Positions 74 through 34,742 of a stretch of 64,000 bases of DNA are shown here, piece after piece; position 1 is the stretch's first letter; every line of letters starts with the position of its first letter. Below the pieces are notes generated by a model. The model was not told the origin of the DNA and did not search any database. It saw nothing but the letters and a program-made list of their open reading frames with translations. This DNA comes from a virus (Duplodnaviria > Caudoviricetes), in the IMG/VR virus record IMGVR_UViG_3300050491_000011. One strand, written 5' to 3'. Both the position numbers and the translations under genes were made by a program.

Positions 74-86
74 GACCGAGGAGGTC
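74..86 (+). promoter_or_regulatory. SD-loop leader hairpin (GACC-GAGGA-GGTC)
   Basis: 4-bp stem with pentaloop, 3 nt before ATG 90; one of 11 copies. Confidence 0.75.
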
Positions 87-89
87 AAC

Positions 90-344
90 ATGAACACTGC
101 ATTCCACGAACAAGCAATCATCAAACTGAACAGCCGCTACATGGCTCTGCGTGATCGACTGAAGCTGATGGCTATCCAGCCTTGCGCTTGGCCAGTTGCT
201 CAAGACCCGCTGTTCCAACGCTTCACTGATTTGATGCTGGATACTGATCCTACTCCTGACAACATCGAGCAGATCACTTCCGGCATCAATAAACTGATTC
301 TGGTTATCGACGACGAAGTCGATGTCCTTGCTCTAGCTGATTAA
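90..344 (+). CDS. Hypothetical protein (84 aa)
   Basis: ORF with GGAGG SD and typical codon usage. Confidence 0.8.
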   Translation: MNTAFHEQAIIKLNSRYMALRDRLKLMAIQPCAWPVAQDPLFQRFTDLMLDTDPTPDNIEQITSGINKLILVIDDEVDVLALAD

Positions 345-391
345 CTTAAACCCCCGGCGGGAATGTTCCCGCCAACCCCTTTCTTATAAAC

Positions 392-404
392 GTCCGTGGA
401 GGAC
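392..404 (+). promoter_or_regulatory. SD-loop leader hairpin (GTCC-GTGGA-GGAC)
   Basis: Compensatory variant of the motif, 4 nt before ATG 409. Confidence 0.75.
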
Positions 405-408
405 TAGC

Positions 409-942
409 ATGAAAAACCGTAACTTTATTACTAAGACCCCAATCAACACCAAGCGTCTGGTAACTGTTCTTGATGACACCTTCGGGATGGTCGGCTACAG
501 TGTCGAGCGCAACATCGGCGATGCATTCGTGTACATCAAGGAACACGATTACTTCGTCCGCTTCAACTTCTTCACCGCTGACTACAAGGACTACGCCACA
601 GCGGCGCAGTACTTGGAGCTTCCCGTAATTACTAACTATCTGTACAACGATTATGTACAGCGGTTGGAATACGAGCAAGCAGTCAGCAATGCGCTCAGAG
701 GTGCCATCAGCGAAGTCCAAATGGATCAGCTGCGTGTGTGTCTCGATAAGCTCGATAAGAACTTCGCTGGCGCTGACTTCGACGACTACGATCAAGTAGT
801 CGAAAGCATCTACGCTATCAAGCGTCTGGCTGTAGTTGACTCAGTCGTTGGTGTGGGCGAAGCCTTCATCGATGATCGCAGCACTTACAACCCGGCTGTT
901 CACTATTCGCTGAAAGTGATCCTGAGCTCCCGCCACTACTAA
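409..942 (+). CDS. Hypothetical protein (177 aa)
   Basis: ORF with SD, followed by a terminator. Confidence 0.85.
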   Translation: MKNRNFITKTPINTKRLVTVLDDTFGMVGYSVERNIGDAFVYIKEHDYFVRFNFFTADYKDYATAAQYLELPVITNYLYNDYVQRLEYEQAVSNALRGAISEVQMDQLRVCLDKLDKNFAGADFDDYDQVVESIYAIKRLAVVDSVVGVGEAFIDDRSTYNPAVHYSLKVILSSRHY

Positions 943-950
943 CCCGCAGC

Positions 951-982
951 AAGAGAGCAGCTAACCCTGCTCTCTTTTTTTT
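951..982 (+). terminator. Intrinsic terminator
   Basis: AGAGAGCAG/CTGCTCTCT stem followed by a T-run. Confidence 0.85.
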
Positions 983-1005
983 TACCCTAAAAAAGGAATA
1001 CCCCG

Positions 1006-1662
1006 ATGTTCGAACAAACCGAATCGCGTCAACTGACTGAAGCTCAGAAGAAAGACATTCAGAAGAAGTACGAGCAAGGTCTGAATCAGGACAAGGTCAA
1101 GAGCGCCCTGCACTCTGTCGACATGTCTCTGGGCATCTTCGGCGGCGGTAGCAAGATCTCCCTGATGGAGCGTCCAATCAGCCGTTTCGTCTTCCACGCA
1201 ATCTTCTCCAGCCCGAAGGTCGAATCGTTCTTCCGTCGCTGCCACGAAGCCGATACTTTCATCACGGCCGAAGAGTTCGCCGAGTTCGAAAAGATCTGCC
1301 AAGAGATCACCGTCAAGATCTCCAAGACCTCCATCGAACAGATCTTCCTGTCGGCCGCCAAGCTGCCGCACACCAATGTTGATCTGTGGGTGATCGAAGC
1401 TGACTGGCGTGACCTGACTGCCCGCATCACCTGGACTCCAGAAATGGAAGAAGCGATCGAGCAGCAAATGGGCGGTATCTTCAACCACCTCGAGCGTCTG
1501 CGCGTACTCACCAGCCGTGACGTTCAGTACTCGACTCTGGCCGACGTACTGACCGGTGAAGCTGCCTCTGAAGCTCGTGGTAACGAAGCGCTGATGGAAG
1601 CATCCTGCGCCCTGCTGCGTCAGTACATGCTCTCCATGCCGATGCAACAACATATCGGCTAA
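1006..1662 (+). CDS. Hypothetical protein (218 aa)
   Basis: ORF with AAGGA SD and strongly biased codons. Confidence 0.85.
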   Translation: MFEQTESRQLTEAQKKDIQKKYEQGLNQDKVKSALHSVDMSLGIFGGGSKISLMERPISRFVFHAIFSSPKVESFFRRCHEADTFITAEEFAEFEKICQEITVKISKTSIEQIFLSAAKLPHTNVDLWVIEADWRDLTARITWTPEMEEAIEQQMGGIFNHLERLRVLTSRDVQYSTLADVLTGEAASEARGNEALMEASCALLRQYMLSMPMQQHIG

Positions 1663-1668
1663 ACGACT

Positions 1669-1707
1669 GGCGCTCCTTCGGGGGCGCCGCTCCACTTTCT
1701 TTTTTTT
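1669..1707 (+). terminator. Intrinsic terminator
   Basis: GGCGCTCC-TTCG-GGGGCGCC, then a T-rich tract. Confidence 0.8.
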
Positions 1708-1722
1708 ATCTGGAGATTGGAT

Positions 1723-2178: not shown

Positions 2179-2205
2179 TGCTATGCCCACCTTGAGGATA
2201 GCATC

Positions 2206-2652: not shown

Positions 2653-2673
2653 TAGATTAATAGAAGGGCGACC

Positions 2674-6935: not shown

Positions 6936-7040
6936 GGTGTTCCCCGTACTTCAAATAATGGAAGGTAAATGACATAAAATGTGTTGCTGCTTACTGAACG
7001 GTTTTATAGGCACACATAATCAAAGTACATAACCGCAATC

Positions 7041-7053
7041 GACTGAGGAAGTC
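7041..7053 (+). promoter_or_regulatory. SD-loop leader hairpin (GACT-GAGGA-AGTC)
   Basis: Compensatory T-A variant, 3 nt before ATG 7057. Confidence 0.75.
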
Positions 7054-7056: not shown

Positions 7057-7605
7057 ATGACCGAGCTTAAAGATCCGTACGTTTTGTTTGAAGCACTGGT
7101 AGCAATTTCTAAGGGCTGCACTAACGTAACTCAGGCCAAGAGTATCGCAGCACAAGCGCTTAAAGACTACAGCGCTGGTGATGTACGTTTGGCTGTGAAG
7201 TCTGGCGTAGACAAAGTGACTGGCGCGGTGTTCCAACCTGTTACTCCGGGAATGTATACGAAGCCTGGCCAGAACTTAACTAGCTACGTTCTGGACATTC
7301 CTTATAACGACGAATGCGAATACCGCTGCGTGTACGTCAGTTATCGTAACGGCGATTCCACTCGATTCATCCTTGAGACTCCTAAAGGCGTTGATACTAA
7401 CGTACTCAAGAACGAACTCAAGGATGCTGGTCTCGGTTGGTATCTGCGTAACAATCCTGAATTCAAATACTGGATTCTGGATGATGTCGCTAAGACCAAG
7501 ATCGAAGCAGACTTCAAACCAACCACTCCGGTAATCACAATCCGCGAGTGGAACCACAATAAACGTTTCCGCCATGGCTACATTGTGGTGGGTAAACACT
7601 CATGA
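7057..7605 (+). CDS. Hypothetical protein (182 aa)
   Basis: ORF with leader hairpin; stop overlaps the next start (ATGA). Confidence 0.85.
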   Translation: MTELKDPYVLFEALVAISKGCTNVTQAKSIAAQALKDYSAGDVRLAVKSGVDKVTGAVFQPVTPGMYTKPGQNLTSYVLDIPYNDECEYRCVYVSYRNGDSTRFILETPKGVDTNVLKNELKDAGLGWYLRNNPEFKYWILDDVAKTKIEADFKPTTPVITIREWNHNKRFRHGYIVVGKHS

Positions 7606-9346: not shown

Positions 9347-10189
9347 ATGTTGGCCGTGATAATCAAAGGTAATCCTAAGTTCATCAATACAGCATTAGCG
9401 AGAACGTACTACTCCGACATCGAGAAGTATCTCAAAGCCCTCGGCTATAAGGTTGAATTCGATGAGGGTAATGACTACACCAGACCCCGACAAGATGCTG
9501 ATCTGTACGTCGCACACTCCCGCGGTGTCGGACGTTACGAGTTCATGGAAGAGAGGAATAAATCGAAGTTCGTGAAGCTTGGTAGTCTGGACGGTGCAAT
9601 CGATCCAGTCGATCGTAAGTGGCAGGAAGAAGTCTGGCATCCGGGCATCAAGACGCCACCGCCGCATGAACACTTCATCTTCACCGACATCCAGAAAGAT
9701 GCGATCCTTCAAGTAGGCGGCGTTTCGATTGATTCGCTCAAGAAGGTAAATGGTCTATCCAGTACTCTTAGTCCAGATCTTCGAAGACTCGTAGAGCTGG
9801 CGATGAAGGACCCTTACCTCGGGACGCCTGCATTGAAGAGCAACATGGAGAACATCACACCTCTCCTCTATAAAGGTCGCACCGTTGGTTTCGCCGTTCC
9901 GTTCCGTGAGAGCGACGGTTACTGGCGTACTGGTTCTATCTATATAGAACCCGCATTCCGGCGTAAAGGGATTGCTCACGAATGGATTGAATCCTTCATG
10001 GAAGGTAAAGCTGGACGTGCGTGGATCGATCCACGTAACGCATCGAGCATCGCAGCTTACACTGCGGCAGGCTTTACCAAGTCAGGGCGGCATGTCAAAT
10101 CCCCGATCTCAGGTAATTGGTTTGATGAGTATCTAACCGAAGAAGCCGGCATGGAAAGTGCACCACCTAAGACCTTATTGACCTGGTGA
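9347..10189 (+). CDS. Two-domain protein: N-terminal alpha/beta-like domain (AHSRG) plus C-terminal GNAT acetyltransferase
   Basis: GNAT motif A IYIEPAFRRKGIA and motif B N.SSIAAYTAAGF. Confidence 0.75.
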   Translation: MLAVIIKGNPKFINTALARTYYSDIEKYLKALGYKVEFDEGNDYTRPRQDADLYVAHSRGVGRYEFMEERNKSKFVKLGSLDGAIDPVDRKWQEEVWHPGIKTPPPHEHFIFTDIQKDAILQVGGVSIDSLKKVNGLSSTLSPDLRRLVELAMKDPYLGTPALKSNMENITPLLYKGRTVGFAVPFRESDGYWRTGSIYIEPAFRRKGIAHEWIESFMEGKAGRAWIDPRNASSIAAYTAAGFTKSGRHVKSPISGNWFDEYLTEEAGMESAPPKTLLTW

Positions 10190-10932: not shown

Positions 10933-11023
10933 AGTCAAATTAATTACAGTCACACATAGCGAGAGTACATACACACAACGATATCCATTCCGGATACGTT
11001 AAACGACCGTGGAGGTCAACATG
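10933..11023 (+). repeat. Promoter-leader cassette, copy 1
   Basis: 25-nt AGTCAAATTAATTACAGTCACACAT is identical to 32187-32211, and the leader downstream is near-identical. Confidence 0.85.
11005..11017 (+). promoter_or_regulatory. SD-loop leader hairpin (GACC-GTGGA-GGTC)
   Basis: 3 nt before ATG 11021. Confidence 0.75.
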
Positions 11024-11413
11024 TCTGCAATCACTATCGCTACTATCGAAGCCACCCTGCGTGCAGTACTGACCGCTCCAGAAGGCGCTCAGGTAATTAC
11101 CTTCTCTCAAGGTGCTCTCGATCAGATGAATGAAGTAACCGACGTCATCATCACTGCCACCGGCTACGATGAAACCAAGGTTACTGAAGAAGAGCTGATG
11201 ATCGCTGCTGCCTTCGCCAACCACTTCACCAAAGACGCAGTTACCGGCGAGGTAGTGGATGGCGTTATCCAGCCATCGCCTGAAGTAGAGTTCCGTGCCG
11301 AAGTTGTTCGGGTGAAAGAACTCTACAGTCTGGGTAGCGAGATGCACGGCGTAGCTCTGCCTGTAGTCCTGCTTTGCAAAGTGTTCAATTCCCTGACTCA
11401 CTTCACTCGCTAA
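11021..11413 (+). CDS. Hypothetical protein, tandem paralog of 11440..11826
   Basis: MSAITIATIEATLRAVLTAPEGA aligns with MSNITVALIEEQLRNVITAPTGA. Confidence 0.85.
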   Translation: MSAITIATIEATLRAVLTAPEGAQVITFSQGALDQMNEVTDVIITATGYDETKVTEEELMIAAAFANHFTKDAVTGEVVDGVIQPSPEVEFRAEVVRVKELYSLGSEMHGVALPVVLLCKVFNSLTHFTR

Positions 11414-11423: not shown

Positions 11424-11436
11424 GACCGAGGAGGTC
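11424..11436 (+). promoter_or_regulatory. SD-loop leader hairpin (GACC-GAGGA-GGTC)
   Basis: 3 nt before ATG 11440; AACGACCGAGGAGGTCAACATG is identical to 71-92. Confidence 0.75.
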
Positions 11437-12167: not shown

Positions 12168-12180
12168 GCCCGAGGAGGGC
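12168..12180 (+). promoter_or_regulatory. SD-loop leader hairpin (GCCC-GAGGA-GGGC)
   Basis: Compensatory C-G variant, 6 nt before ATG 12187. Confidence 0.7.
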
Positions 12181-17591: not shown

Positions 17592-17602
17592 AAGTACTCC
17601 TA

Positions 17603-18676: not shown

Positions 18677-18681
18677 GAGAG

Positions 18682-19779: not shown

Positions 19780-19789
19780 ATTGAATCCC

Positions 19790-20332: not shown

Positions 20333-20334
20333 GA

Positions 20335-21444: not shown

Positions 21445-21456
21445 GATTGGGCTCCT

Positions 21457-22137: not shown

Positions 22138-22147
22138 GGACTACTCC

Positions 22148-23116: not shown

Positions 23117-23133
23117 GATTATAAAACCTCTTA

Positions 23134-24180: not shown

Positions 24181-24184
24181 GATA

Positions 24185-24562
24185 TTACTCCTCGCTAGCG
24201 GCTGGTTCAGCAGACTCTTCTACAGCCGGATCATTCCAGCAGAGGTACAGGCGCCCGCATGGCGCCACAGAGCCCTCTGGGAACTTCACACAGAGCGCGT
24301 ACTTGAAGATGCTGAAGGTAGGCAGGCTATGGTCGTTAAGCCCGTTATAGAGGACCTCAACGCCGAACGTCGAGTACTCACGCAAGTCAGCCTGAGCGTT
24401 CCATTTACTGCGATCTTCTTCGGGACCGTAGTTAGCCAGAACGCTGGAGAGGAGTTGCATGTTGCGAATGTCGCACTGACCCAGCTGTATCCCCGCCAGC
24501 AGCTCACCCATTTCAGTGAAGTCAGCACGCAGCAGGTAATTTGGCCAATCGTTCATTTTCAA
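24185..24562 (-). CDS. Stand-alone C-module of the structural paralog family
   Basis: W...STFGVEVLYNG.N..LP...FKY.L...G.LYL.WNDP matches the C-termini of 26032..26910 and 28681..29514. Confidence 0.7.
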   Translation of the reverse strand: MKMNDWPNYLLRADFTEMGELLAGIQLGQCDIRNMQLLSSVLANYGPEEDRSKWNAQADLREYSTFGVEVLYNGLNDHSLPTFSIFKYALCVKFPEGSVAPCGRLYLCWNDPAVEESAEPAASEE

Positions 24563-24574
24563 ATTCCCAATTAA

Positions 24575-25069
24575 TTAGAAGGCCTGCAACGTGTTACCGT
24601 TGAATGCAGTGGCGATGTCAGGATAGCCGCCGAACTTCAGAGTAGCGGAGCCTGTCCAACCGAGATGGTTAGGACCAACCTCAATCTTGACGTTAACCTT
24701 ACCGTCTGCGGTAAAGCTCGGGTTATCAACCAACTCACTCACAAGGAATGGAACTCGAGTGTAGGCGAAGACGATAGGAACCCACGTCGCTACTGGAGCT
24801 GCGTCTGGACAGACGCAGAGATTGAGGTTGAAGTTCTCCAGCGGTTGCAGTGGAATGCGATCGTAGAAGACCGTCGTGAAACCAACCGTCTTGGTGGACG
24901 CTGGAGCTGAGTTCACTTGAATGGCAGTGTTCTTGCCGTACTTGGTAACCTCCGCGCCTGTCGCTGCACGAGGAGTACCGAAGACAACGTCGGCTTCTAC
25001 AAGCGATAGACCAGAAGCTACGTTGATCATCGCGACAAGGTCAGCCGCACTAGATACGAAAATAGTCAT
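24575..25069 (-). CDS. Virion structural protein, N-module family
   Basis: LVAMINVAS...VFGTP...KNTAI...GFTTVFYDR. Confidence 0.75.
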   Translation of the reverse strand: MTIFVSSAADLVAMINVASGLSLVEADVVFGTPRAATGAEVTKYGKNTAIQVNSAPASTKTVGFTTVFYDRIPLQPLENFNLNLCVCPDAAPVATWVPIVFAYTRVPFLVSELVDNPSFTADGKVNVKIEVGPNHLGWTGSATLKFGGYPDIATAFNGNTLQAF

Positions 25070-25077
25070 GGCGGACC

Positions 25078-25977
25078 CTATACTTTATATTGAAGGACAC
25101 ACCGGCCGGTAAACCAGCTATCGGCACTGGATTGGATAAGCACAACCGTGTTGTACTTGACGGAGTCGGCTTCTGGCACGTTGGCATTAGGTAGCGTGTA
25201 ACGATACCACTGAATGTTCGCAGTGCCGCCGGGCGTATTGGCGTTACCAATATTCCACCCGGTTTGGCCGGAGTTAGCATTCAGCCAATCGCAGATCTGC
25301 TGAAGCCCGGCGTTAGCGCCGCCTGGTGGAACCCATGCACTTGGGATGGTTTGCAAGATCGTTTTGATCTCGGTAGCATCCTGAGTGATAGTCATGAACT
25401 CGCCTGTTGGTTTACGCCCAACGGAGAAGTCGTTACCGCCTGGATATAGGCGTCCAACCAGTCCACGGTTCGCATCGGTAATCAGGTCAGTGATCGGACG
25501 CTTACCGAGAGTCCATGCGACAGTGAAAGTACCTTTATAACACAAACTAGCGGCGAGGATAGTTTGCGTTGTGTTGTTACCGGTCACAATAATCGGACTA
25601 CCGTTGATATCAGCAGCTACTAAGCTGACACCGTACTTTGCCGTATAAGCCGGAAGCCAAACCGAAAGAGGTATTGTAGATCCACTGTACCAGATATCCA
25701 ATCTCTGAGTAGTGTTCTTAAATAGCTTAGTCAGGTCGATACGACGATACTTGACAGTGACCTTACCGATACCACCGGAAGCGGCTGTCGGCGTAACCAG
25801 AATGCTGGTGTCATTCTTGAACGGGTCAGCGCCATCCACCGTAATGGCGGTTGGGGTTCCGAACGTCACAGAGCCGATCGGATATACATCTTTGAAGCCG
25901 GGGTTACTTTTCTCAATCAGATCGTAGATCATCTCTGATTGAGGTTTACGGTAATCTGTAGGGACCGCAGTAGCCAT
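25078..25977 (-). CDS. Virion structural protein, N+C modules
   Basis: Start at MATAVPT (GGGAG SD); IYDLIEKSN..FGTP..NDT..YRR; C-terminal LP.AN.PEA.S..YN.V. Confidence 0.75.
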   Translation of the reverse strand: MATAVPTDYRKPQSEMIYDLIEKSNPGFKDVYPIGSVTFGTPTAITVDGADPFKNDTSILVTPTAASGGIGKVTVKYRRIDLTKLFKNTTQRLDIWYSGSTIPLSVWLPAYTAKYGVSLVAADINGSPIIVTGNNTTQTILAASLCYKGTFTVAWTLGKRPITDLITDANRGLVGRLYPGGNDFSVGRKPTGEFMTITQDATEIKTILQTIPSAWVPPGGANAGLQQICDWLNANSGQTGWNIGNANTPGGTANIQWYRYTLPNANVPEADSVKYNTVVLIQSSADSWFTGRCVLQYKV

Positions 25978-26031
25978 GAGTATTCTCCCAATGGAAGTAG
26001 CAGACGGGTGTTGCCACCCGTCTGCATCCAC

Positions 26032-26910
26032 TTATGTCGCGTTCGGATCGAACGGATCGTTGTAGTGGAGATACATGACACCGGCTGGCGTGAGTACCGC
26101 TGGATCAAGCTGCAACGCCAGTACGTACTTGTACGCAGGGTTGGTTGGAAGCGAGACGGAGTTCAGACCGTTGCTAACAACTGTTGCACCGGACACGTTC
26201 CAAGCAGTACCGCCCGGAGTGTTGGTCCACAGCGCTTTACCAGCCGAGATGTCAACAGCCTTGAGCATGGTGACCAATGCATCAGCTTGAGTGCTGTTGA
26301 TGACGCCAGGAGTCAGCGTCTGCACCTGAGTGAAGTACGACGTGAAGTCGTATCCGTACAGATACAGTTGACCGTAGGTATCACTATCCAACGCGGTCGG
26401 GTAGTTAAGGCCCGGCAGCGAGGTAACTTGAACCATCTCGTTGATCGGCGCAGAACCTTTCTTAACGATCACGCTGACGTTACCGATCCAACCGATCGAA
26501 CCCGGCTTAGCGGACAGGATCGCTGTCCACGTATTGTCGCCGTTATCCGTCAGTGGGTTATCGATGAGGTCATCGGTGGTGAAGTGAATGCCGGTCCAGT
26601 AAGCGATCATTGGAATCAGATCGTGTACCGAATCTTTGTTATACGCAGAGATCCGGAAACCCGGAATATGCGCGGCGGTGAGTTCGTTCAACTTCAAGCG
26701 ATCGAACGTCAGCACTTTGGTGCCTTGGTACTGCCCGCCCGGTTTGGCCGTAAGGCGCAGAGCGGTGTTGTGGGTGGTGACTTGACCTTGCCAAGTACCT
26801 TCTACAACTTGCGGTGTACCAATGACAACGTCTGCTATCGTGAACGCCGTCGAGTTGGCGGTATTGATGGCCGCCAAGAAATCGTCGACTGACAGATTCA
26901 TGTAAGACAT
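26032..26910 (-). CDS. Virion structural protein, N+C modules
   Basis: FLAAINTAN..IGTP..HNT..FDR; C-terminal YLHYNDP. Confidence 0.8.
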   Translation of the reverse strand: MSYMNLSVDDFLAAINTANSTAFTIADVVIGTPQVVEGTWQGQVTTHNTALRLTAKPGGQYQGTKVLTFDRLKLNELTAAHIPGFRISAYNKDSVHDLIPMIAYWTGIHFTTDDLIDNPLTDNGDNTWTAILSAKPGSIGWIGNVSVIVKKGSAPINEMVQVTSLPGLNYPTALDSDTYGQLYLYGYDFTSYFTQVQTLTPGVINSTQADALVTMLKAVDISAGKALWTNTPGGTAWNVSGATVVSNGLNSVSLPTNPAYKYVLALQLDPAVLTPAGVMYLHYNDPFDPNAT

Positions 26911-26921
26911 TGTTTCTATCC

Positions 26922-27863
26922 TCAGACGTTGAAGTGGACGTAGTTCCGACCAGGGCCGAAGTCAGCCAGCATGGACTCAGGAGTTTCCCACGTCAACAGG
27001 CGGTTGAAGTATTCAGAGTTCGCCTCTGGGTACTTCGTCGATGGAAGAGTGACGACTTCGAAGACGTTGTTCGGTACGCCGTTCCATGCAGCGTTGATCG
27101 GGAAGGCCGTACCCAAATCGGCGTTGAGCTGACCGAACACGAAGTTGAGGAACTGTGCCGAGAGTGGGTAGTTCCCGAACACAACGAAGCTGTTTGGGTA
27201 ACCACTCCATGGGTTAGTGGCCAGACGCCCACTCCAATCGTACGCGTACGCGGCGTTACTCATGATCGGACGACGCTCACCAGTGAAGTCGTTACCGCCT
27301 GGGTACATACGTGCATTCAGGTCAGTCACGGTGATCATGGAGCTGAGGTCTTGTGGAGCACCTTTCCACTTCAGCGCGAACGACCCGGTGTACGCCAAGC
27401 TTGTAGCCTTGGTAGCCACGGTAACGGTACGGGTATAGAAGCCATCTTCCAGAGTCGAGCCACGGGTGATGTTCTGATCCACCACGTCGTCTTGAGTCAG
27501 GTTGATACCGTACTTCGCATTGATCAGCGGAAGCAGACTGTACACCGAGAACACAACTGCACCAGCGCCAGCAGCGGCACCTTGGTTAGCCGAGTAGCGT
27601 TCGATCTGGATCGTGATACTGCGGAACAAGACAGCCATGTCGCGACGGCGATAGTTAACTTCCTTACGACCGATGAAATCGGCGTTGGGGAGCGAGTTCA
27701 GCATGATCTTGGTGTTCATTGCCGAGTTGCCTGGAACAGTAGCTGGCGCAGGCACCCCCAGAAGAACGTTGGTCTTCGTCACTGGAATCCAATCAGGACC
27801 AGCGTTTGCCAAGTTGATAAGGTCATAAACCTCATCGATAGGCGGTTTGCTAAAAATAGGCAT
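26922..27863 (-). CDS. Virion structural protein, N+C modules
   Basis: VYDLINLAN..LGVP..NT..YRR; RMYPGGNDF shared with 25078..25977. Confidence 0.8.
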   Translation of the reverse strand: MPIFSKPPIDEVYDLINLANAGPDWIPVTKTNVLLGVPAPATVPGNSAMNTKIMLNSLPNADFIGRKEVNYRRRDMAVLFRSITIQIERYSANQGAAAGAGAVVFSVYSLLPLINAKYGINLTQDDVVDQNITRGSTLEDGFYTRTVTVATKATSLAYTGSFALKWKGAPQDLSSMITVTDLNARMYPGGNDFTGERRPIMSNAAYAYDWSGRLATNPWSGYPNSFVVFGNYPLSAQFLNFVFGQLNADLGTAFPINAAWNGVPNNVFEVVTLPSTKYPEANSEYFNRLLTWETPESMLADFGPGRNYVHFNV

Positions 27864-27868
27864 CTTGA

Positions 27869-28669
27869 TTAAGCCTCTTCGAGGATGTTGTAGTGAAGAT
27901 ACATCGGCCCGATCAGCTGGTCGCTGTAGAAGCCAGCCTGAACAACCACGCGGTCAAAGGCAGGGTTACTATCTTCGATAGCCGAGGTCGGATAGTCGGC
28001 AATATAACCTTCAGCCCAACCGGGAATACCCAGATACGAGCAGGCGTTCTGAAGAGCAGCCCAATCGGTGTAACGCGCCCCAGGATTTGTAGGCTTGATC
28101 GCATCACGAAGACTGGTGAAGTCAACATCCCACGTAACCATCCGAGCGGACATCTTCGAATTCACCGGGTCCGGGTGGTTACGGACTGGGAGGATCTTGA
28201 TGCCAACGATGCTATCAAGCAAGGACTTGGCGTGGGTGATGTTGATTACCGCTGAGCCGATGAAGCCACGACTGGTTGCCCGCGCGGTCAAGGTCAGTGT
28301 GTCAGCCTCGCCATTGGCCGGATTAGGCGGCGTAAACGGTACGAAGTCATCAACGGTAAGGAATAGGCCGAACGCGCCGTTAATCAGCGATACGATGCTT
28401 TCCTGCGTGAACACTTCTTCACTACGAACGTCCGCATCCTGAATGATGTCGCCAAGCACCAGACGTTTGTAATAGATGTCGACTTCGTTGTAGTAACCAC
28501 GCCCCGGAACCGACTTCACAGTCAGCTTGGTATTCGCAGTTTCCGTATCAACGACTTCGAGGTCTATCAGGCTGACGTTCATTTCAGTGAACGTCTTCGG
28601 CGGCACGTTGAGGATGTTTAGTTCCTCAATGATTTTACTGGTAGCAGACGGAACTGGAGGAACGGCCAT
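27869..28669 (-). CDS. Virion structural protein, N+C modules
   Basis: NTKLTV...GRGY...IYYKR; C-terminal MYLHYN. Confidence 0.8.
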   Translation of the reverse strand: MAVPPVPSATSKIIEELNILNVPPKTFTEMNVSLIDLEVVDTETANTKLTVKSVPGRGYYNEVDIYYKRLVLGDIIQDADVRSEEVFTQESIVSLINGAFGLFLTVDDFVPFTPPNPANGEADTLTLTARATSRGFIGSAVINITHAKSLLDSIVGIKILPVRNHPDPVNSKMSARMVTWDVDFTSLRDAIKPTNPGARYTDWAALQNACSYLGIPGWAEGYIADYPTSAIEDSNPAFDRVVVQAGFYSDQLIGPMYLHYNILEEA

Positions 28670-28680
28670 GACTACACCTC

Positions 28681-29514
28681 TTAATCCACAATCGGATCGT
28701 TAAAGTGAAGAACCAGTTGGCCAGACCAACCCAACGACTTGGTGTCATCGAGATCGACGATGATCACGTTGTCATAGTCCTGGTTGGAGATAGGTTCGCC
28801 AGAGGTCGGCCCTACGTAGCTAACGACCGCCCCATCCAAGGAGAAGCGGGAAGCGCCGACGAGCTGCCACGCATCGCCAGAGGCCGCCACAAGGGCATCC
28901 TTGATGATACCGAGACTATCTTGTCCAGTAACCACCGTACTTAGAGTAGCGTAGTAGCCACTCATGTTACGCCAGTAGGAATAACCGACCGAAGCGTAAG
29001 GTTTGGTGATCTGAGCCGAAGGGTAGTTCAAGCCCGGCAGTTGAGTGACGGTGATCACGTCAGATAGAGGCTGTGCCCCCAGAGCGAGACTGAACGTAAC
29101 TGTGCCAACCCAACCCATGCTATCAGCTTCAGCCACCAGCGTAACTTCACCAGCACCGTTCACCAAGGTCAATGGCGAAGAGACGATGTCGCCCGGCTCA
29201 AAGCCGATACCGTGCCGTTTGTTCAGCATGGCGACGAAGTCGTCAGTGGTACTGATGTCGTAGCCCTTGATGTTCGAGCTGATCAGGATCAGAAGATCCG
29301 CCAGATCCAAACGCTTATAGCGGATGGTAGTCGAACCATCGTAAGGACTCAGTGGGTTGAGTGCAGTAACCAGCAACGAAGTGTTAGTGCCTGATGCGTC
29401 CGGAGCAACTGCCGTAGGCGTACCGAACGTATACTCACCCGCAATCAGTTCGACGTTGTTTAACGTCTTGATCGCTTCGAGGATGGCATCAAGCGGTCTT
29501 TTATACAAAGCCAT
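28681..29514 (-). CDS. Virion structural protein, N+C modules
   Basis: FGTP..NTSL..YDG..IRYKR; C-terminal LHFNDP. Confidence 0.8.
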   Translation of the reverse strand: MALYKRPLDAILEAIKTLNNVELIAGEYTFGTPTAVAPDASGTNTSLLVTALNPLSPYDGSTTIRYKRLDLADLLILISSNIKGYDISTTDDFVAMLNKRHGIGFEPGDIVSSPLTLVNGAGEVTLVAEADSMGWVGTVTFSLALGAQPLSDVITVTQLPGLNYPSAQITKPYASVGYSYWRNMSGYYATLSTVVTGQDSLGIIKDALVAASGDAWQLVGASRFSLDGAVVSYVGPTSGEPISNQDYDNVIIVDLDDTKSLGWSGQLVLHFNDPIVD

Positions 29515-29526
29515 ATCGAAACCTCT

Positions 29527-30324
29527 TTATGACCGGTTGAAGTGAATATACGCGTCGCCTTTGTAGCCGTTGATGTCAACGCCCGTCTGGATGCAGACGT
29601 TGGTGAAATCTTGGTTGGCTTCAGGTACGTCTTTGGTCGAATACGACTTCACTGATTGAGTCATGAACACAGGGATGTCTGGGAAGCCCATCTCAATGAA
29701 CATCTTCTGGACAGCAGGCCAGTTGGTCCAACCGTACCAAGCAACGCCCAGAATGTTGGAGTAGTACGAGAAGTCCAGGCCCCACGTCGCCATGTCAAGG
29801 GAAGGTTTACCCAAGTCCAATGGATTGTGGTGGGATAGGACGTCCAGCTCTTTCTCCGCGATCGCTACTTCAAGCAGCGGACGGATACGGATGAACTGGA
29901 TAACAAACGTGCCTTCATAACCCAATGAGTTCGGGCTAGCCTTGATCACCAAGTTCGCCTGTTCGTTACCACCCAGCCAGTCAATCGGCTCGTTGATGAT
30001 ATCGATAGGTTGTAGGTTCAGGCCAAGACGTTTGTTCAGAATTGGGAGCAACCGATGGATGGTTGTCTGACCCAAGTCTTGGATGATCGGACGCACACCA
30101 CCAAAGACCTTATCGAAGTTGATGCGACGATATTTCCACCGCGCGTATCCTTCGTAGTCCTCGTTGTTGTACATCGTAACGGAGGGAAGTTCGATCGATC
30201 CATCAGCCAACGACTTCACGTTGCCGTAGTAAAGACCGCCTACTTCCAGCGGTACAGCCAAAGCGTTCTGTTCGTTGATGAGACCGACCAGCGCTTCTTC
30301 CGACGATCCCGGTAAAAGTAACAT
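29527..30324 (-). CDS. Virion structural protein, N+C modules
   Basis: LVGLINEQN..YEG..WKYRR; C-terminal YIHFN. Confidence 0.8.
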   Translation of the reverse strand: MLLLPGSSEEALVGLINEQNALAVPLEVGGLYYGNVKSLADGSIELPSVTMYNNEDYEGYARWKYRRINFDKVFGGVRPIIQDLGQTTIHRLLPILNKRLGLNLQPIDIINEPIDWLGGNEQANLVIKASPNSLGYEGTFVIQFIRIRPLLEVAIAEKELDVLSHHNPLDLGKPSLDMATWGLDFSYYSNILGVAWYGWTNWPAVQKMFIEMGFPDIPVFMTQSVKSYSTKDVPEANQDFTNVCIQTGVDINGYKGDAYIHFNRS

Positions 30325-30366
30325 AAGGCATCTCCTGGAGTCGAAGCTGACTTAAACGGTAAATAA

Positions 30367-30397
30367 GAGAGGACGAGGCCGAAACCCCGCCCTCTCA
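30367..30397 (-). terminator. Hairpin terminator on the minus strand
   Basis: Reverse complement GAGAGGGCGGGGT-TTCG-GCCTCGTCCTCTC; G-U pairs fit the minus strand. Confidence 0.65.
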
Positions 30398-30429
30398 GAT
30401 TTATTTGTATTAAGGCAGTGGTGAAGACC

Positions 30430-30954
30430 TTACGCTACTGGAACGTAGGTCAGACCGTTCAGTTCAGTCACGGTCAGGTATTCAGCCAGGTCGATCTCGT
30501 CGGACTTCAGATGGAAGGTCAGGCTGCCGATATACGCCAGCGAGTCAGCCTTCGCCACGACTTGTACGTCGTGAGTTTCGTTCGGGATACCACCGGTGAA
30601 GGTTGGCAGCACGCCGTCGACGAAGTCTTCAGCCTGGAGATTGATGTTCAGGAGAGCGTTCAGCTCTGGGATGATGTCAGCGATGTTGACCGCGTCACCC
30701 AGGTTGAAGGTTGCGTCCTTGCCCGATGGCACGAGGATCGCGGTGTTCAGGTGCAGACGGTTGTACTTGAACGTCTGGCTACCGACGAAACCCGAACCAG
30801 CTTTGGCGGTCAGGGTCACGGAGGTGTTCTTGTCGCCAGTGCTGTTTACGGTTGGCAGACCGATGTCGACGACGCCGTAGGTGATACCTTTGCCGTTGTC
30901 GGAGTTGATAAGGTCAAGGACTACGACCTTGCTTGCTTTAGTCATATCGCTCAT
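30430..30954 (-). CDS. Virion structural protein, N-module family
   Basis: VLDLINSDN..IGLP..KNTSV..GSGFVG..F.YNR; highly optimised codons suggest abundance. Confidence 0.8.
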   Translation of the reverse strand: MSDMTKASKVVVLDLINSDNGKGITYGVVDIGLPTVNSTGDKNTSVTLTAKAGSGFVGSQTFKYNRLHLNTAILVPSGKDATFNLGDAVNIADIIPELNALLNINLQAEDFVDGVLPTFTGGIPNETHDVQVVAKADSLAYIGSLTFHLKSDEIDLAEYLTVTELNGLTYVPVA

Positions 30955-31025
30955 TACAGGTACTCTTCAGTAAGTAAGGACAAGTCGGCCTTGGCCAACC
31001 ACATAGAATTCTACTTATACACGGA

Positions 31026-31553
31026 TCAAACAACCGGCTCGTAAGTCAAGCCATTCAGATCAGTGACAGGTAGATACGCGCTCAGAGGAATCAATTCAGG
31101 CTGCACTTCAAGAATCAATGAGCCAAGGTACACCATCGAATCGAACGTCACCTTGAGTTCAATGTTCGCCGACAGATTTGCACTGAGATCTGGCAGAGGT
31201 TTGTCGATGATCTTGCTTGCTGTCAGGTTGATGTTCAACCGTTCGTTAATAGCCGGCAAGAGATCGGACAGGTTCACTTCATCCGTGATAGTGAACTCTA
31301 GCGACGTCGTATCAGGATCTACGAAGTCTACTAGTCTTACTCGGTTGTAATAGAAGCTTTGACTACCTTCATAGCCTCTGCCCGCGACAGCCGTACCAAC
31401 CATCAGGGTATTACGATTCACCCCAGCAATAGGGGTATAAACGCTCGGAGTGCCAAAGGTCACCTGACTGGACGTTAAGGTCCTGTTCTGGTTATCTTGG
31501 CGAATGAGATCGATAACGACGTCTATCTCACTCCGTGTGTAGTCAATGGCCAT
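31026..31553 (-). CDS. Virion structural protein, N-module family
   Basis: VIDLIRQDN..FGTP..RNT..GRGYEG..FYYNR; paralog of 30430..30954. Confidence 0.8.
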   Translation of the reverse strand: MAIDYTRSEIDVVIDLIRQDNQNRTLTSSQVTFGTPSVYTPIAGVNRNTLMVGTAVAGRGYEGSQSFYYNRVRLVDFVDPDTTSLEFTITDEVNLSDLLPAINERLNINLTASKIIDKPLPDLSANLSANIELKVTFDSMVYLGSLILEVQPELIPLSAYLPVTDLNGLTYEPVV

Positions 31554-31596
31554 ACACGAGTTCTCGTTAAGGAATCAGGAGGTCATAGAATTTCGG

Positions 31597-32136
31597 TCAG
31601 TGGACTAACTGATCGTAAACTCCGCCGTCGGTCATTGGCTCGCCCCCAGGCGCTACAAGGCCGTTCAAAACGTTGTTCGGGAATTGTGACGCTAGGGTGA
31701 GGACTCCTTGGCTTGCGTTGAGTACAAGCGTTCCTAGCCACACGAAAGACCTATTCGAAACGGTGATGGTGACAACGCCGTCCACGTTGGTGTAATCTTT
31801 GATATCGTTCAGGCTCAATACGAAGTTGTACTTGAGCTTCAGGGCATTCACCACAGACGCAGGTGTGATCTCTCCCTGTACTTCGACACTGACATCGGGC
31901 TCGCCAATATCGATGAATGCTTGCTGCATATCCAAGCGGTTGTAATAGTAGACGTAACTGCCGGTGATCTGCCTACCACGAGCCGTAGCACCCACCTTCG
32001 TATTCTTTCCATCGAACTCGCCCAGCACCAAACCGGTGAAAGACAGGTTCGACGTACTAAGCGTTACGCCGTATCCTTCCAAGATGGCCTGATTCGCTAC
32101 CTGAATCATCTCGGCCAGCATTTCCTCACCGGTCAT
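31597..32136 (-). CDS. Virion structural protein, N-module family
   Basis: KNTKV.ATA.G....G..YYYNR; upstream TTTATG on the minus strand. Confidence 0.75.
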   Translation of the reverse strand: MTGEEMLAEMIQVANQAILEGYGVTLSTSNLSFTGLVLGEFDGKNTKVGATARGRQITGSYVYYYNRLDMQQAFIDIGEPDVSVEVQGEITPASVVNALKLKYNFVLSLNDIKDYTNVDGVVTITVSNRSFVWLGTLVLNASQGVLTLASQFPNNVLNGLVAPGGEPMTDGGVYDQLVH

Positions 32137-32186
32137 AGTCGATACCTGTGCATAAATGGATTAACTCTACATCCTATTTGGATTGG

Positions 32187-32277
32187 AGTCAAATTAATTA
32201 CAGTCACACATTGTCTCGGTACAACATAACAACGATATCAATTCCTGATACGTTGCAACGACCGAGGAGGTCACATG
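32187..32277 (+). repeat. Promoter-leader cassette, copy 2 (includes SD-loop hairpin GACC-GAGGA-GGTC at 32260-32272)
   Basis: Near-identical to 10933-11023. Confidence 0.85.
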
Positions 32278-32595
32278 GACAATAGTAAACTCGCTAACAC
32301 GTTGATGGGTATGGCTACTGAGCTGATGATTCAGTTCAATCGTACCACTGCGTTGAGTGAGACACTGCACAACCAGTACATGGAGCGTACGTCTGTAAAA
32401 GGACGGCACGAGTGCAGTAAGCCGGTGGATGCAAATGCCGAGGAGTTGGCTATTATCAGCAACTCTTTAGGTAAGCGGGTTCTTGAGATCGCTAATCTCT
32501 TGCGTCTGCTGCATCCGGCATACGAAGTCAAGATACCTGAAAGGGTTAAGTTGACTTACGTATCCACTGAGCTCGAGCTAACGCCTCGATCTTAG
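32275..32595 (+). CDS. Hypothetical protein (106 aa)
   Basis: ORF after the leader hairpin. Confidence 0.8.
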   Translation: MDNSKLANTLMGMATELMIQFNRTTALSETLHNQYMERTSVKGRHECSKPVDANAEELAIISNSLGKRVLEIANLLRLLHPAYEVKIPERVKLTYVSTELELTPRS

Positions 32596-32640
32596 TCGGC
32601 CGGCTACAGACGGGTGGAATTCTCCACCCGTTACCATAAC

Positions 32641-32653
32641 GACTGAGGAAGTC
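32641..32653 (+). promoter_or_regulatory. SD-loop leader hairpin (GACT-GAGGA-AGTC)
   Basis: 4 nt before ATG 32658. Confidence 0.75.
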
Positions 32654-32657
32654 TAAC

Positions 32658-32987: not shown

Positions 32988-32988
32988 C

Positions 32989-33001
32989 GACCGTGGAGGT
33001 C
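32989..33001 (+). promoter_or_regulatory. SD-loop leader hairpin (GACC-GTGGA-GGTC)
   Basis: 4 nt before ATG 33006. Confidence 0.75.
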
Positions 33002-33005
33002 TGTC

Positions 33006-33344
33006 ATGATTTCTGATGTACTCAAGATAGCAGCAGGCGTAACAATACTCGCCAGTGCCATTGGTGGAGCGATCTATTACGTCACCAAGAAGGATAACGA
33101 GAACAAGTTGGCAAGTATCAAACGGCAGGTGGGCGATAACCTGGACTTCATCGACGCTTACATCGCGTTGATGACCAGCGATGCGCTGTCTGTGAAGCAG
33201 CTGGGTGAGTTGGAGAAATTGCGTGAAGCGCACCAGACTCAATTCGCTGGAATCCCTTACAACGTGATGGTCGTTATGTTGGCTCAGTCCAACGGTATCT
33301 ACATGACCGTCCGTGATGCTGCAAAGGCACATCAGAAGAAATGA
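33006..33344 (+). CDS. Membrane-anchored hypothetical protein, paralog of 32658..32987
   Basis: Colinear similarity to the upstream gene. Confidence 0.8.
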   Translation: MISDVLKIAAGVTILASAIGGAIYYVTKKDNENKLASIKRQVGDNLDFIDAYIALMTSDALSVKQLGELEKLREAHQTQFAGIPYNVMVVMLAQSNGIYMTVRDAAKAHQKK

Positions 33345-33430
33345 TCGGGAAAGACCCTGATCTACCTACCCGATGAACCGCGGATCTTCAAAGAAGCTTT
33401 CCGCTGGCAATACCAACCCGAACCCGAATC

Positions 33431-33443
33431 GACTGAGGAAGTC
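33431..33443 (+). promoter_or_regulatory. SD-loop leader hairpin (GACT-GAGGA-AGTC)
   Basis: 5 nt before ATG 33449. Confidence 0.75.
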
Positions 33444-33448
33444 CTACC

Positions 33449-33979
33449 ATGCAAGATATCCAAAAGCAAATCGAAGATGACGTTAGCAAAGTCATTCGCG
33501 ACAAGAACACTCTCGCAGCTATCGACGCTGCTATTGAAGTTGGTGCGGACTACGAAACAAAGTTCCACGCCAACTGGATGATCGCTCGTGGTTTCTATAA
33601 CCTCGGCATCGTCACCGCGCTGTTCCATGCTGCTGATCGCGCCATCGAACGGATCGCTAAAGATCCTGAAGAACTCGGTTGCAAGATGGCATTCATCGAC
33701 AAAGATGGACGCGAGTGCATCATCATCGCAGGGCACCATGGCTACGTGTTCATGTATGCCAATGGTTACGTCTCTATCCATAGCGGGTATCACTGCGATA
33801 ACCTCGATGTCTTGATGGCCCTTGACGGAATTAGCTTAAAGCAAACATTCCGTGACCTCATGGTACAAGGCTTGCCATTCATGGGGCTGATTCCTATCCT
33901 CGATTCGATTGTAGAAAACCGATCGAACCAGGAAGAGATGACTCGCCTCCACGCAAAATTCAGAAGCTACTTGGCTTAA
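33449..33979 (+). CDS. Hypothetical protein (176 aa)
   Basis: ORF after the leader hairpin. Confidence 0.85.
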   Translation: MQDIQKQIEDDVSKVIRDKNTLAAIDAAIEVGADYETKFHANWMIARGFYNLGIVTALFHAADRAIERIAKDPEELGCKMAFIDKDGRECIIIAGHHGYVFMYANGYVSIHSGYHCDNLDVLMALDGISLKQTFRDLMVQGLPFMGLIPILDSIVENRSNQEEMTRLHAKFRSYLA

Positions 33980-33989
33980 GGAAACAATC

Positions 33990-34343
33990 ATGTCACTCGT
34001 ATCTGTAACCATCATGGGTAACGACCTGGTTCTCGGTTCTCAATCCGACCCACCGGTTGGTCACCGGATCGGCACAGTTCCGTTGAAGTTTGATAACGGT
34101 AAGACCGAGCATATCTGCGTGTTCGGTTCTGTCCACATCTACACCGATTCGAGAGAGCGTGATCACTTCGAGGCAGAGCTGCGTAAGTTCTGCCAAGATC
34201 CTGATACCGTTCAGAAGGTTCTCGACATCACCGGGCAATCTGCCTACGCTAAACGTTTCAATCCATCGCGGTCCCAAACGGATCGCGGCTGGTATCGTGC
34301 CGGTAAAACCGGTGGTCTAGAAACCCAACATAGCTGCGCGTAG
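33990..34343 (+). CDS. Hypothetical protein (117 aa)
   Basis: TAAGGA SD. Confidence 0.8.
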   Translation: MSLVSVTIMGNDLVLGSQSDPPVGHRIGTVPLKFDNGKTEHICVFGSVHIYTDSRERDHFEAELRKFCQDPDTVQKVLDITGQSAYAKRFNPSRSQTDRGWYRAGKTGGLETQHSCA

Positions 34344-34355
34344 GAGTGGTCCTGA

Positions 34356-34712
34356 ATGCGTGGACGATGTGAGTTGACCACAGATAGTAAACGCAGCAAA
34401 GAGCAGATGCTTAACAAACTGATGCGGATCAACCTCGCAATCGGTAAAGATCCTAGGTTCGCTGATCTACTGAATGACGAGATGTTTATTCAGAATCTGA
34501 AAGAGGCGCAAAAATACCTCAATCTGATGATCAACGATAATACTCTAATGGGTCGTGATCTTCGACACGTAATCACGTTATACCACGCACATGTTCACGA
34601 ATGGCTAGACGCTATACAAACCCATTGCGACTATAACCAAATCCTCGAAATAAATTTCAGGACTACGACTCTGGGTGAGTTGATCGAAGCCTTAGAACCG
34701 ACTACAAAGTAA
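34356..34712 (+). CDS. Hypothetical protein (start uncertain)
   Basis: ORF fills the gap in a + strand operon. Confidence 0.65.
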   Translation: MRGRCELTTDSKRSKEQMLNKLMRINLAIGKDPRFADLLNDEMFIQNLKEAQKYLNLMINDNTLMGRDLRHVITLYHAHVHEWLDAIQTHCDYNQILEINFRTTTLGELIEALEPTTK

Positions 34713-34729
34713 TACCCATTATACCCAAC

Positions 34730-34742
34730 GACCGTGGAGGTC
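34730..34742 (+). promoter_or_regulatory. SD-loop leader hairpin (GACC-GTGGA-GGTC)
   Basis: 3 nt before ATG 34746. Confidence 0.75.

Follow-up and report, generated by a model that had tools for sequence, protein, structure and literature searches.

The locus and its hairpins

The stretch of DNA analyzed here (the window, 64,000 nt) consists of bases 124199-188198 of IMGVR_UViG_3300050491_000011, an IMG/VR virus record of 188,198 bp that is estimated to be 75% complete and is referred to below as G000. The record belongs to an uncultivated phiKZ-like jumbo phage with a G+C content of 51%. Eleven genes in the window begin just downstream of a short hairpin that contains their Shine-Dalgarno (SD) sequence, and these hairpins and the genes behind them are the subject of this report. 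The clade to which the phage belongs starts a subset of small, fast-evolving, probably early genes with this shared 13-base SD hairpin.

The eleven hairpins had been listed in an earlier note on the window. Each was confirmed as N4-G(A/T)GGA-N4 with a perfect Watson-Crick stem of 4 bp and an ATG 2-6 nt downstream (Table 1), and a recount of the stems agrees with the tally given there: GACC/GGTC in six copies, GACT/AGTC in three, and GTCC/GGAC and GCCC/GGGC in one each. The window contains 275 copies of G[AT]GGA on its two strands, from which about one perfect stem is expected by chance (275/256). Thirteen were observed, namely the eleven sites and two unrelated ones, at 43780 inside a gene and at 8671 on the minus strand. 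The whole record holds 17 members of the family, all of them on the plus strand, and no family-like copy with a broken stem was found in it. The remaining ~215 genes of G000 have ordinary open SDs, for example TAAGGAG. A search of Rfam at the gathering score returned no match in the window.

Table 1. Hairpins, promoter-like motifs and other features. Positions are those of the window unless another genome is named. All SD hairpins of the window are matched by covariance model R1 (see text); lengths of gene products are in amino acids (aa).
Feature	Position	Strand	Gene or remark	Counterpart in relatives
SD hairpin GACC-GAGGA-GGTC	74..86	+	ATG at 90; 84-aa ORFan (90-344); R1 score 31.3 bits	G001 orthologue GACT/AGTC, compensated swap
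SD hairpin GTCC-GTGGA-GGAC	392..404	+	ATG at 409; 177 aa (409-942); product without match in PHROG and Pfam searches	
SD hairpin GACT-GAGGA-AGTC	7041..7053	+	ATG at 7057; 182 aa (7057-7605); weak promoter-like motif 35 nt upstream	G001 orthologue (93% aa identity) GACC/GGTC, compensated swap
SD hairpin GACC-GTGGA-GGTC	11005..11017	+	ATG at 11021; 130 aa (11021-11413); strong promoter-like motif 59 nt before	G005 homologue ACCC/GGGT
SD hairpin GACC-GAGGA-GGTC	11424..11436	+	ATG at 11440; 128 aa	G001 orthologue GTCC/GGAC, compensated swap
SD hairpin GCCC-GAGGA-GGGC	12168..12180	+	ATG at 12187; 148 aa (12187-12633)	G001 orthologue with identical stem
SD hairpin GACC-GAGGA-GGTC	32260..32272	+	ATG at 32275; 106 aa (32275-32595); strong promoter-like motif 60 nt before	
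SD hairpin GACT-GAGGA-AGTC	32641..32653	+	ATG at 32658; 109 aa, N-terminal membrane-like helix	
SD hairpin GACC-GTGGA-GGTC	32989..33001	+	ATG at 33006; 112 aa, N-terminal membrane-like helix	G001 orthologue GTCC/GGAC, compensated swap
SD hairpin GACT-GAGGA-AGTC	33431..33443	+	ATG at 33449; 176 aa (33449-33979)	
SD hairpin GACC-GTGGA-GGTC	34730..34742	+	ATG at 34746; 172 aa (34746-35264)	G001 GACC/GGTC with GCGGA loop; G002 GACC/GGTC; G005 ACCC/GGGT
Weak promoter-like motif ATAGGCACACAT	7006..7017	+	Score 15.0	
Promoter-like motif ACAGTCACACAT	10946..10957	+	Score 39.5	
Promoter-like motif ACAGTCACACAT	32200..32211	+	Score 39.5; heads operon with five hairpins	
Weaker promoter-like motif ACAGCCATACAT	40488..40499	+	Before operon with non-virion RNA polymerase beta/beta' homologue	
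Weaker promoter-like motif copy	56311-56322			
Leader hairpin AACG-AUAUCC-AUUCC-GGAUA-CGUU	10977..11000	+	4 nt before SD hairpin	
Leader hairpin variant AUAUCA/UGAUA	32230..32255	+		
Array of ~15 similar-sized genes	16935-32136	-	Several are paralogous virion structural proteins (phrog_1037/2935, phrog_2448)	
phiKZ-type major head protein	38181-40367		phrog_3231	
Non-virion RNA polymerase beta/beta' homologue	41705-43357			
Six hairpin genes with membrane-like helix	G000 70461, 70677, 71059, 83607; window 32658, 33006			
Hairpins of pPa_SNUABM_DT01, examples	43189, 121374, 122268, 173708, 248285, 255954, 256358 of that genome			

That this is a phiKZ-like jumbo phage is borne out by its phiKZ-type major head protein and by its nearest named relative, Pseudomonas phage pPa_SNUABM_DT01 (MW735835; DT01 below), whose major head protein is 37% identical. 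A nucleotide-level search of the phage collection, in near and distant modes, gave no match to the window. Relatives were located among viral contigs, both by a scan for 16-mers and by searching with the head protein. The 16-mer scan returned 56 stretches, mostly single unconfirmed matches, and only contigs with several matches or a related head protein were kept. The closest is G001 (254 kb, complete), which shares 86% nucleotide identity with G000 across 96% of it. The others were compared by the identity of their head protein to that of G000: G002 (154 kb, 66%), G005 (258 kb, complete, 60%), G009 (267 kb, 67%), and G011 (264 kb, 66%). Several fragment contigs are also among the relatives. 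Genes were called with a simple caller of our own.

Anatomy of the hairpin

The element has the 13-nt consensus GACCGWGGAGGTC, and the counts out of 99 given below refer to its sites in six genomes. A G-poor, C/A-rich, single-stranded leader precedes a 4-bp stem that encloses the loop G-(A/U)-G-G-A. Between the hairpin and the start codon, which is ATG at 55 of 61 sites, lies a spacer of 1-6 nt, or as many as 8 nt in the distant clade. The loop is GAGGA at 53 of the 99 sites and GTGGA at 41. Its first base is G at 97 sites, a position where an ideal SD would have A. The GGA closes the loop on its 3' side and is unpaired at all 99 sites, and the base that follows, G at 86 sites (GGAG) and A at 13 (GGAA), begins the 3' arm of the stem. 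The SD reads GGAGG(U), or GAGGA where A occupies position 10, and its positions 10-11 are paired with the 5' arm, as are bases 12-13. When position 10 is A, the loop is GAGGA in eight of eight cases, so the SD is retained. Because A at this position always comes with the loop that keeps the SD, the element acts as one: the hairpin itself provides the SD for its downstream gene.

The bases on either side of the stem (positions -1 and +14) are unable to pair at 88 of the 99 sites, and position -1 is never G; the stem length is fixed at 4 bp. The 30 nt upstream contain 12% G compared to 20% for other genes, and GGA is depleted around the hairpin, both upstream (0.28 vs. 0.48 per 45 nt) and downstream (0.13 vs. 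0.59 per 50 nt). Hairpin energies are about -6 kcal/mol for GACC and GUCC stems, -4 for GACU, -8 for GCCC, and -2 for the weakest stems, and the hairpin is the minimum free energy or centroid structure in most local folds. The pair G1:C13 is present at ~89% of sites. The unpaired flanks are conserved by clade, with A-A/T-C in one clade and YTA/TRA together with an AGYAAC spacer in the other. Reading these flanks as stop codons was rejected. The AAC flank is not the stop of the upstream gene, the gaps to the upstream stop being 1-177 nt, and only ~6 of 38 TAA/TAG/TGA-like flanks in the distant clade are in-frame stops. Only two hexaloop variants were seen, both of the form GACC-GTAGGA-GGTC, at G001:103628-103641 and G002:112654-112667, each downstream of a copy of the promoter-like motif described below.

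Selection on pairing

A covariance-model scan of the genome and its relatives had been proposed in the earlier note. Model R1 (61 sites) finds 17, 22, 11, and 19 copies in G000, G001, G002, and G005, respectively. At E <= 1 it matches 12 sites in G009 and 18 in G011, including some weak ones. Almost all matches are on the gene strand. A strict pattern finds 9-19 copies in each of five related jumbo-phage genomes.

Evidence for selection on the stem comes from a pattern that is blind to pairing. In this approach, NNNN-G[AT]GGA-[AG]GNN followed after 1-8 nt by a start codon and an open reading frame (ORF) of at least 40 codons was searched for in the six related genomes. On the plus strand, 93 of 144 sites had all four Watson-Crick pairs, and 12, 23, 14, and 2 sites had zero, one, two, and three pairs, respectively. 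On the minus strand, the 42 sites were distributed as 13, 14, 14, 1, and 0 for zero to four pairs. Furthermore, shuffling the 5' arms among all SD contexts of G000 gave 1.9 ± 1.4 perfect stems compared to 15 observed, and the same permutation in the other five genomes gave ~2 expected compared to 12-21 observed. This permutation on called gene starts took the place of two scans that proved too noisy, one with a loose context (A[AT]C and any loop) and one over all ATG/GTG.

The 99 sites comprise 14 stem versions with one G·U pair and no mismatch. The versions are GACC, GTCC, GACT, ACCC, TACC, GCCC, TACT, AGCT, GGCC, GGCT, TCCC, TCCT, TTCT, and GTCT, each with its complement. The sole G·U pair of the family is found at G001:105509-105521 (GGCT-GAGGA-AGTC), before a 243-aa gene in a region that G000 lacks. 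Covariation is seen at three of the four pairs. Among the four closer genomes, pair 1/13 is GC at 52 sites, AU at 3, and UA at 1; pair 2/12 is AU at 34, UA at 14, CG at 6, and GC and GU at 1 each; and pair 4/10 is CG at 48 and UA at 8. The third pair, C3:G11, is invariant because G11 is part of the SD. The observed covariation score was reached by none of 500 shuffles, and every slid register collapses.

Further evidence comes from orthologous sites in G000 and G001. Five of ~15 such sites carry a compensated double swap and none carries a single change. The swapped sites are those at 74, 7041, 11424, and 32989 of the window and G000:83996, which has a third version, ACCC/GGGT, in G005. At 86% identity, independent point mutations would not yield this many double swaps, and copying among stem alleles probably contributes. 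Because all alleles pair perfectly and none of the stems is chimeric, it is the pairing itself that is selected. The view that stem changes are compensated and that structure is under selection, first taken from the eleven sites, now has behind it the 14 paired stems, the pairing-blind counts, and the swaps between G000 and G001. Alignment A1 was built from sites already known to pair, which in part accounts for its 100% pairing; the counts that are blind to pairing are separate from it.

These observations bear on two explanations that give the stem no role in RNA. One is that the hairpin has no function, being a repeat spread by duplication whose perfect stems come from shared ancestry. It is true that two stems, GACC and GTCC, make up 74 of the 99 copies. 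However, the genes behind the copies are mostly unrelated, all 14 stems are paired, the element persists across genomes whose head proteins are only 60-67% identical, and no decayed copy exists. We find this explanation scarcely credible. The other is a site that works at the DNA level, either as an operator for a dimeric DNA-binding protein or as a hairpin promoter like those of the N4 virion polymerase. The element is indeed an inverted repeat found repeatedly ahead of genes, and the early promoters of N4 are reportedly DNA hairpins. However, half-site recognition needs no complementarity at variable positions, yet complementarity is always kept. The spacing to the start codon is fixed like that of an SD, the loop and 3' arm are the only SD present, and the copies are all on the sense strand. 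In addition, a transcript begun at the hairpin would lose its own SD, and a separate conserved promoter motif lies upstream. A DNA-level site is, in our estimate, highly improbable.

Genes behind the hairpin

The hairpin genes encode products that for the most part show no relation to each other; the exceptions are two pairs of distant paralogues. The 128-aa product (ATG at 11440) is a paralogue of the 130-aa product (ATG at 11021), to which it is 33% identical, and the 112-aa product (ATG at 33006) is a distant paralogue of the 109-aa product (ATG at 32658). Searches of hairpin-gene products in PHROG and Pfam (ten per search, 13 distinct products of the 17) gave no match. The products have a median length of 126 aa, and an N-terminal membrane-like helix is found in 6 of 17 hairpin genes (35%) compared to 14 of 217 other genes (~6%). 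Between G000 and G001 the hairpin genes are fast-evolving or replaced. The plus-strand ORFs after the hairpins at 32641 and 32989 overlap a minus-strand ORF and are taken to be real genes because they show a third-codon-position bias and are conserved better than that ORF.

No copy of the hairpin precedes a core or structural gene in the window, as the earlier note had observed. The genes for the head protein, the helicases also encoded in the window, and the RNA polymerase subunit have ordinary SDs, and so does every gene of the virion-protein array. A Pfam search of ten neighboring genes gave a single GNAT-like match, to the C-terminal part of a 280-aa protein (9347-10189) that weakly resembles a GNAT acetyltransferase (Acetyltransf_1, 22.4 bits).

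When are the hairpin genes expressed? A promoter-like motif, A.T.AA-N5-TTACAGTCAYACAT (the ACAGTCAYACAT motif), whose core reads ACAGTCACACAT at the two strong copies in the window, occurs on the plus strand only, with 13, 16, 9, and 19 matches in four genomes compared to none on the other strand. Eighteen of 61 hairpins lie 34-62 nt downstream of this motif. The others are internal to the same operons, beside hairpin-less genes, so that only some genes of each operon carry the hairpin. In phiKZ and AR9, the non-virion RNA polymerase subunits are early genes, and in such phages a conserved motif marks the early promoters used by the virion polymerase; middle and late promoters are not predictable (PMC7598289). 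The motif seen here is probably the early promoter of the clade's virion RNA polymerase. Because the motif before the hairpin genes also precedes, in a weaker copy, the operon of the non-virion RNA polymerase, which is early in phiKZ and AR9, the hairpin genes are probably early genes.

Other structures were observed in the leaders. A second hairpin sits between the promoter-like motif and the SD hairpin in the window (Table 1) and occurs in G001 near 12420, 88700 (a compensated variant at G001:88724), and 244090. Its loop AUUCC is conserved, its stems are compensated (AUAUCC/GGAUA, AUAUCA/UGAUA, and AUAGCC/GGUUAU), and the UCC of its loop is complementary to the GGA of the SD loop. G+C-rich stem-loops, GGCGGGAA..TTCCCGCC (~355-380) and ACGGGTGGA..TCCACCCGT (32600-32625), are found just upstream of two SD hairpins, and these may be terminators or stabilizers between operon genes.

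The variability of the hairpin genes raises the question of whether the start cassette serves as a recombination linker, a short homology at gene borders that allows modules to be swapped. The precedent for this is the promoter early stem-loop (PeSL) of T4-type phages (PMC2839356). PeSLs consist of a sigma-70-type promoter and a terminator stem-loop and act in transcription (PMC2839356, PMC4122927). Like the hairpin, they are conserved cassettes that flank small variable early ORFans and coincide with gene-replacement borders. Unlike them, the hairpin has a stem of 4 bp and no U-run, it contains the SD, and the promoter-like motif is separate from it, at 18 of 61 sites. The comparison of G000 and G001 gives the linker idea some footing. 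A replacement at 32278-32637 of the window is bounded by two hairpins within 12 nt; the 106-aa gene in this segment is absent from G001, where two different small genes stand in its place, each behind a hairpin of its own. A second replaced segment has one end 21 nt away from a hairpin, the alignment breaks at the hairpin at G000:70442, and genes behind hairpins are hypervariable. Of all 56 segment ends, 3 are no more than 40 nt away from a hairpin, compared to 0.38 expected (P = 0.006). However, 25 of 28 replaced segments have no hairpin at either end, 13 nt is a very short homology, and exchange by homology explains neither the compensated changes nor the 4-bp limit of the stem. We therefore hold the linker to be very unlikely as the reason for the hairpin, and a role at module borders is probably a side effect and not the selected function.

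Distribution beyond the clade

Model R1 finds nothing in phiKZ, Xoo-sp14, and LucasX and a single weak match in DT01. In phiKZ, hairpins at SDs show no excess (13 compared to 22.5 expected). DT01, on the other hand, has 10 SD hairpins compared to 1.6 ± 1.2 expected, and the highest number reached in 500 permutations was 5. Some nine of the DT01 sites read N4-T(A/T/C)(A/T)GGA-N4, with a hexaloop, an ATG 2-5 nt downstream, and a C/A-rich leader (examples in Table 1). Their stems are GTTC, GATC, TGTC, GGAC, ATGC, and GCCC. These hairpins look like a looser version of the same device. Since DT01 shares the architecture, it may be the architecture and not the sequence that predates the clade, and a cultured system for its study exists.

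Reading of the hairpin

How would such a hairpin act in translation? Half of the SD is displayed and half is clamped. The 30S subunit would nucleate on the GGA of the loop and would then have to open the stem to complete the SD/anti-SD helix. The weak, short, and isolated stem fits a structure that must open and yet respond to any stabilizer. Translation of the hairpin genes would be poised and would be separable from that of open-SD neighbors on the same polycistronic early transcript.

We prefer to read the hairpin as an operator for a trans-acting hairpin-binding factor that switches the genes off or sets their level as a class, a reading that we regard as evenly poised between right and wrong. 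It is preferred because the loop G, the G1:C13 pair, the clade-specific flanks, and the use of the hairpin by only part of an operon are not required by the SD or by pairing. The earlier note had proposed a translational regulon for accessory genes that is read by host Rsm/Csr proteins or by a phage-encoded RNA-binding protein. The idea of a regulon finds support. The host reader is not supported, and a phage-encoded reader is possible, none having been identified. The factor would more likely be phage-encoded than host CsrA, and it would act by stabilizing or cutting the hairpin.

The main rival model does away with the factor. In this model, the hairpin is a structured ribosome-binding site that works in cis: the GGA, presented in a pre-ordered loop, nucleates pairing with the anti-SD, the stem keeps the strong GGAGG from pairing elsewhere and trims its strength, and the whole is a standard start signal, independent of context, for newly acquired early genes. 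Several observations suit it. The stem is capped at 4 bp between G-poor, unstructured flanks, most stems are at or weaker than about -6 kcal/mol, and stem sequence is free at three pairs. DT01 has the same architecture, including a paired G after the GGA, in the excess over expectation given above, with other stems and a hexaloop, and no candidate for an RNA-binding protein was found. However, the model leaves unexplained why the hairpin is found at only part of an operon's genes, why the unpaired flanks are conserved by clade, and why phiKZ manages without the element. We consider it rather doubtful.

The reader named in the earlier note, host CsrA/RsmA, would bind the GGA loop, stabilize the stem that occludes the SD, and repress translation; alternatively, early transcripts would titrate CsrA. 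The resemblance is real. As in CsrA/RsmA targets, where the bound protein blocks the ribosome, GGA lies in the loop of an SD hairpin of no more than 4 bp at 99 of 99 sites; the hairpins selected by CsrA in SELEX are mostly 4 bp or less, and stabilization of the pslA hairpin by RsmA is a precedent (PMC7652899). Furthermore, the nearest cultured relative infects Pseudomonas aeruginosa, which has Rsm proteins. The details of the loop, however, do not agree. The SELEX consensus is RUACARGGAUGU, in which conservation of ACA and GGA is 100%, and the loop is usually the hexaloop ANGGAN (PMC7652899). Here the A of ANGGA, which RsmE contacts, is G at 97 of 99 sites, and in 41 of 99 loops (GUGGA) the GGA is not preceded by any A. 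In place of a hexaloop closed by AC/GU, there is a pentaloop in which GGA is 3'-terminal and abuts the 3' arm. CsrA usually, but not obligatorily, binds two sites, with a second GGA 10-63 nt away (PMC7652899), whereas here a second GGA within 50 nt is depleted and not enriched. Given the loop base G, the five-base loop, and the depleted second GGA, CsrA/RsmA as the reader is not supported, and we regard it as unlikely.

A phage-encoded factor has its model in T4, in which RegB and RegA inactivate early mRNAs as a class and RegB targets GGAG in the SDs of early genes (PMC3014915). The geometry is that seen here: GGAG/U in an early SD, an unpaired GGA, and a constrained fourth base. However, strong RegB sites read GGAGRAYARAA and depend on S1, and RNA with secondary structure is generally shielded from cleavage (PMC3014915). 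The A-rich 3' context is absent here, where G-(T/A/G)-C and a short spacer follow, and about one in ten sites has GGAA. A RegB (PF10715) search gave a sub-threshold match of 13.3 bits in G000 only and none in G001, G002, or G005, and control genomes match equally. This match is to the 86-aa ORF L099 (G000:34457-34717, outside the window) and is probably noise. A RegB-like activity is a lead within the reading of a phage factor.

In the RNA phages MS2, Qbeta, and PP7, the coat protein binds a hairpin at the replicase start, and it reads loop bases and shape while stem identity is largely free. The likeness is that of a short hairpin that holds the start signals of a gene and is bound, there, by a phage protein. 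The operator of an RNA phage, however, occurs once per genome and covers the start codon, whereas the present hairpin occurs in ~17-24 copies per genome and covers the SD. A more specific form of the factor reading, possible but tentative, is that the nucleus-forming jumbo phages of this clade make a hairpin-specific RNA-binding protein or endoribonuclease that silences ~20 small early genes post-transcriptionally, with a hexaloop version in DT01. Such a protein would be a functional analogue of T4 RegA/RegB without sequence similarity, its targets would include many membrane proteins, and it would act independently of transcription.

Several points weigh against a trans-acting factor. The early timing of the genes is derived from the promoter-like motif. 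No homologue of CsrA, RegA, or RegB was found above cut-off in the phage genomes searched (eight phage records for CsrA). The loop G can be explained by a G·A mismatch that closes the loop, and the flanks by a need to keep the stem from growing longer or by the cassette having been copied. The architecture in DT01, whose stems differ and whose loop has six bases, agrees with a general property of ribosome binding at least as well as with a specific protein. Copying among few stem alleles may inflate the apparent covariation, though all 14 alleles are perfectly paired. Finally, local folding energies are no better than those of shuffled sequence (z ~0), which is expected for a 13-nt hairpin. 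Because local folds are not more stable than shuffles, the case rests on covariation.

Relation to start-associated sequences

The closest parallel to the hairpin is the start-associated sequence (SAS) of cluster K mycobacteriophages. The SAS is a 13-nt element, GGGATAGGAGCCC, with an SD core inside and outer bases GGG-N7-CCC; it is present in 11-19 copies per genome, 3-7 nt before mostly ATG starts of non-structural genes and in one orientation (PMC3203893). Its function was unexplained as of 2025 (PMC12699233). In the Felix O1-like phage Mordin, a similar repeat of 26 bp stands before 8 hypothetical genes (PMC4611695).

Like the SAS, the hairpin is an asymmetric element of ~13 nt with an SD core that occurs in many copies, in one orientation, near the starts of unrelated non-structural gene families. 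The two differ in sequence, as the hairpin consensus does not match GGGATAGGAGCCC within two mismatches. They also differ in form and setting. The outer bases of the SAS would give a 3-bp stem with a 7-nt loop, and the SAS belongs to temperate siphoviruses of an actinobacterial host, whereas the hairpin belongs to a lytic jumbo phage and, unlike the SAS, lies downstream of a probable virion-polymerase promoter. Furthermore, no covariation has been reported for the SAS, and for the extended SAS its authors argued against RNA pairing; here pairing is evident from the compensated changes. Thus, the hairpin is not an SAS by sequence but is the same kind of element, and what is new is its place in the early operons of a jumbo phage and the clear evidence for an RNA stem.

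Significance

Start-site motifs of several phage groups, the SAS and the Mordin repeat among them, have so far been without an explained function. In the present case, pairing is selected, and there are ~100 copies with 14 compensated stems. This turns a vague motif into a testable translational operator, because the stem can be broken and restored at positions 1-2 and 12-13 with the SD core untouched. DT01, a cultured P. aeruginosa phage with a looser form of the hairpin, provides a system for laboratory work. The finding also bears on how jumbo phages, which have their own polymerases and of whose translational control little is known, order their gene expression post-transcriptionally. The hairpin would give a set of genes its own control point inside polycistronic early transcripts.

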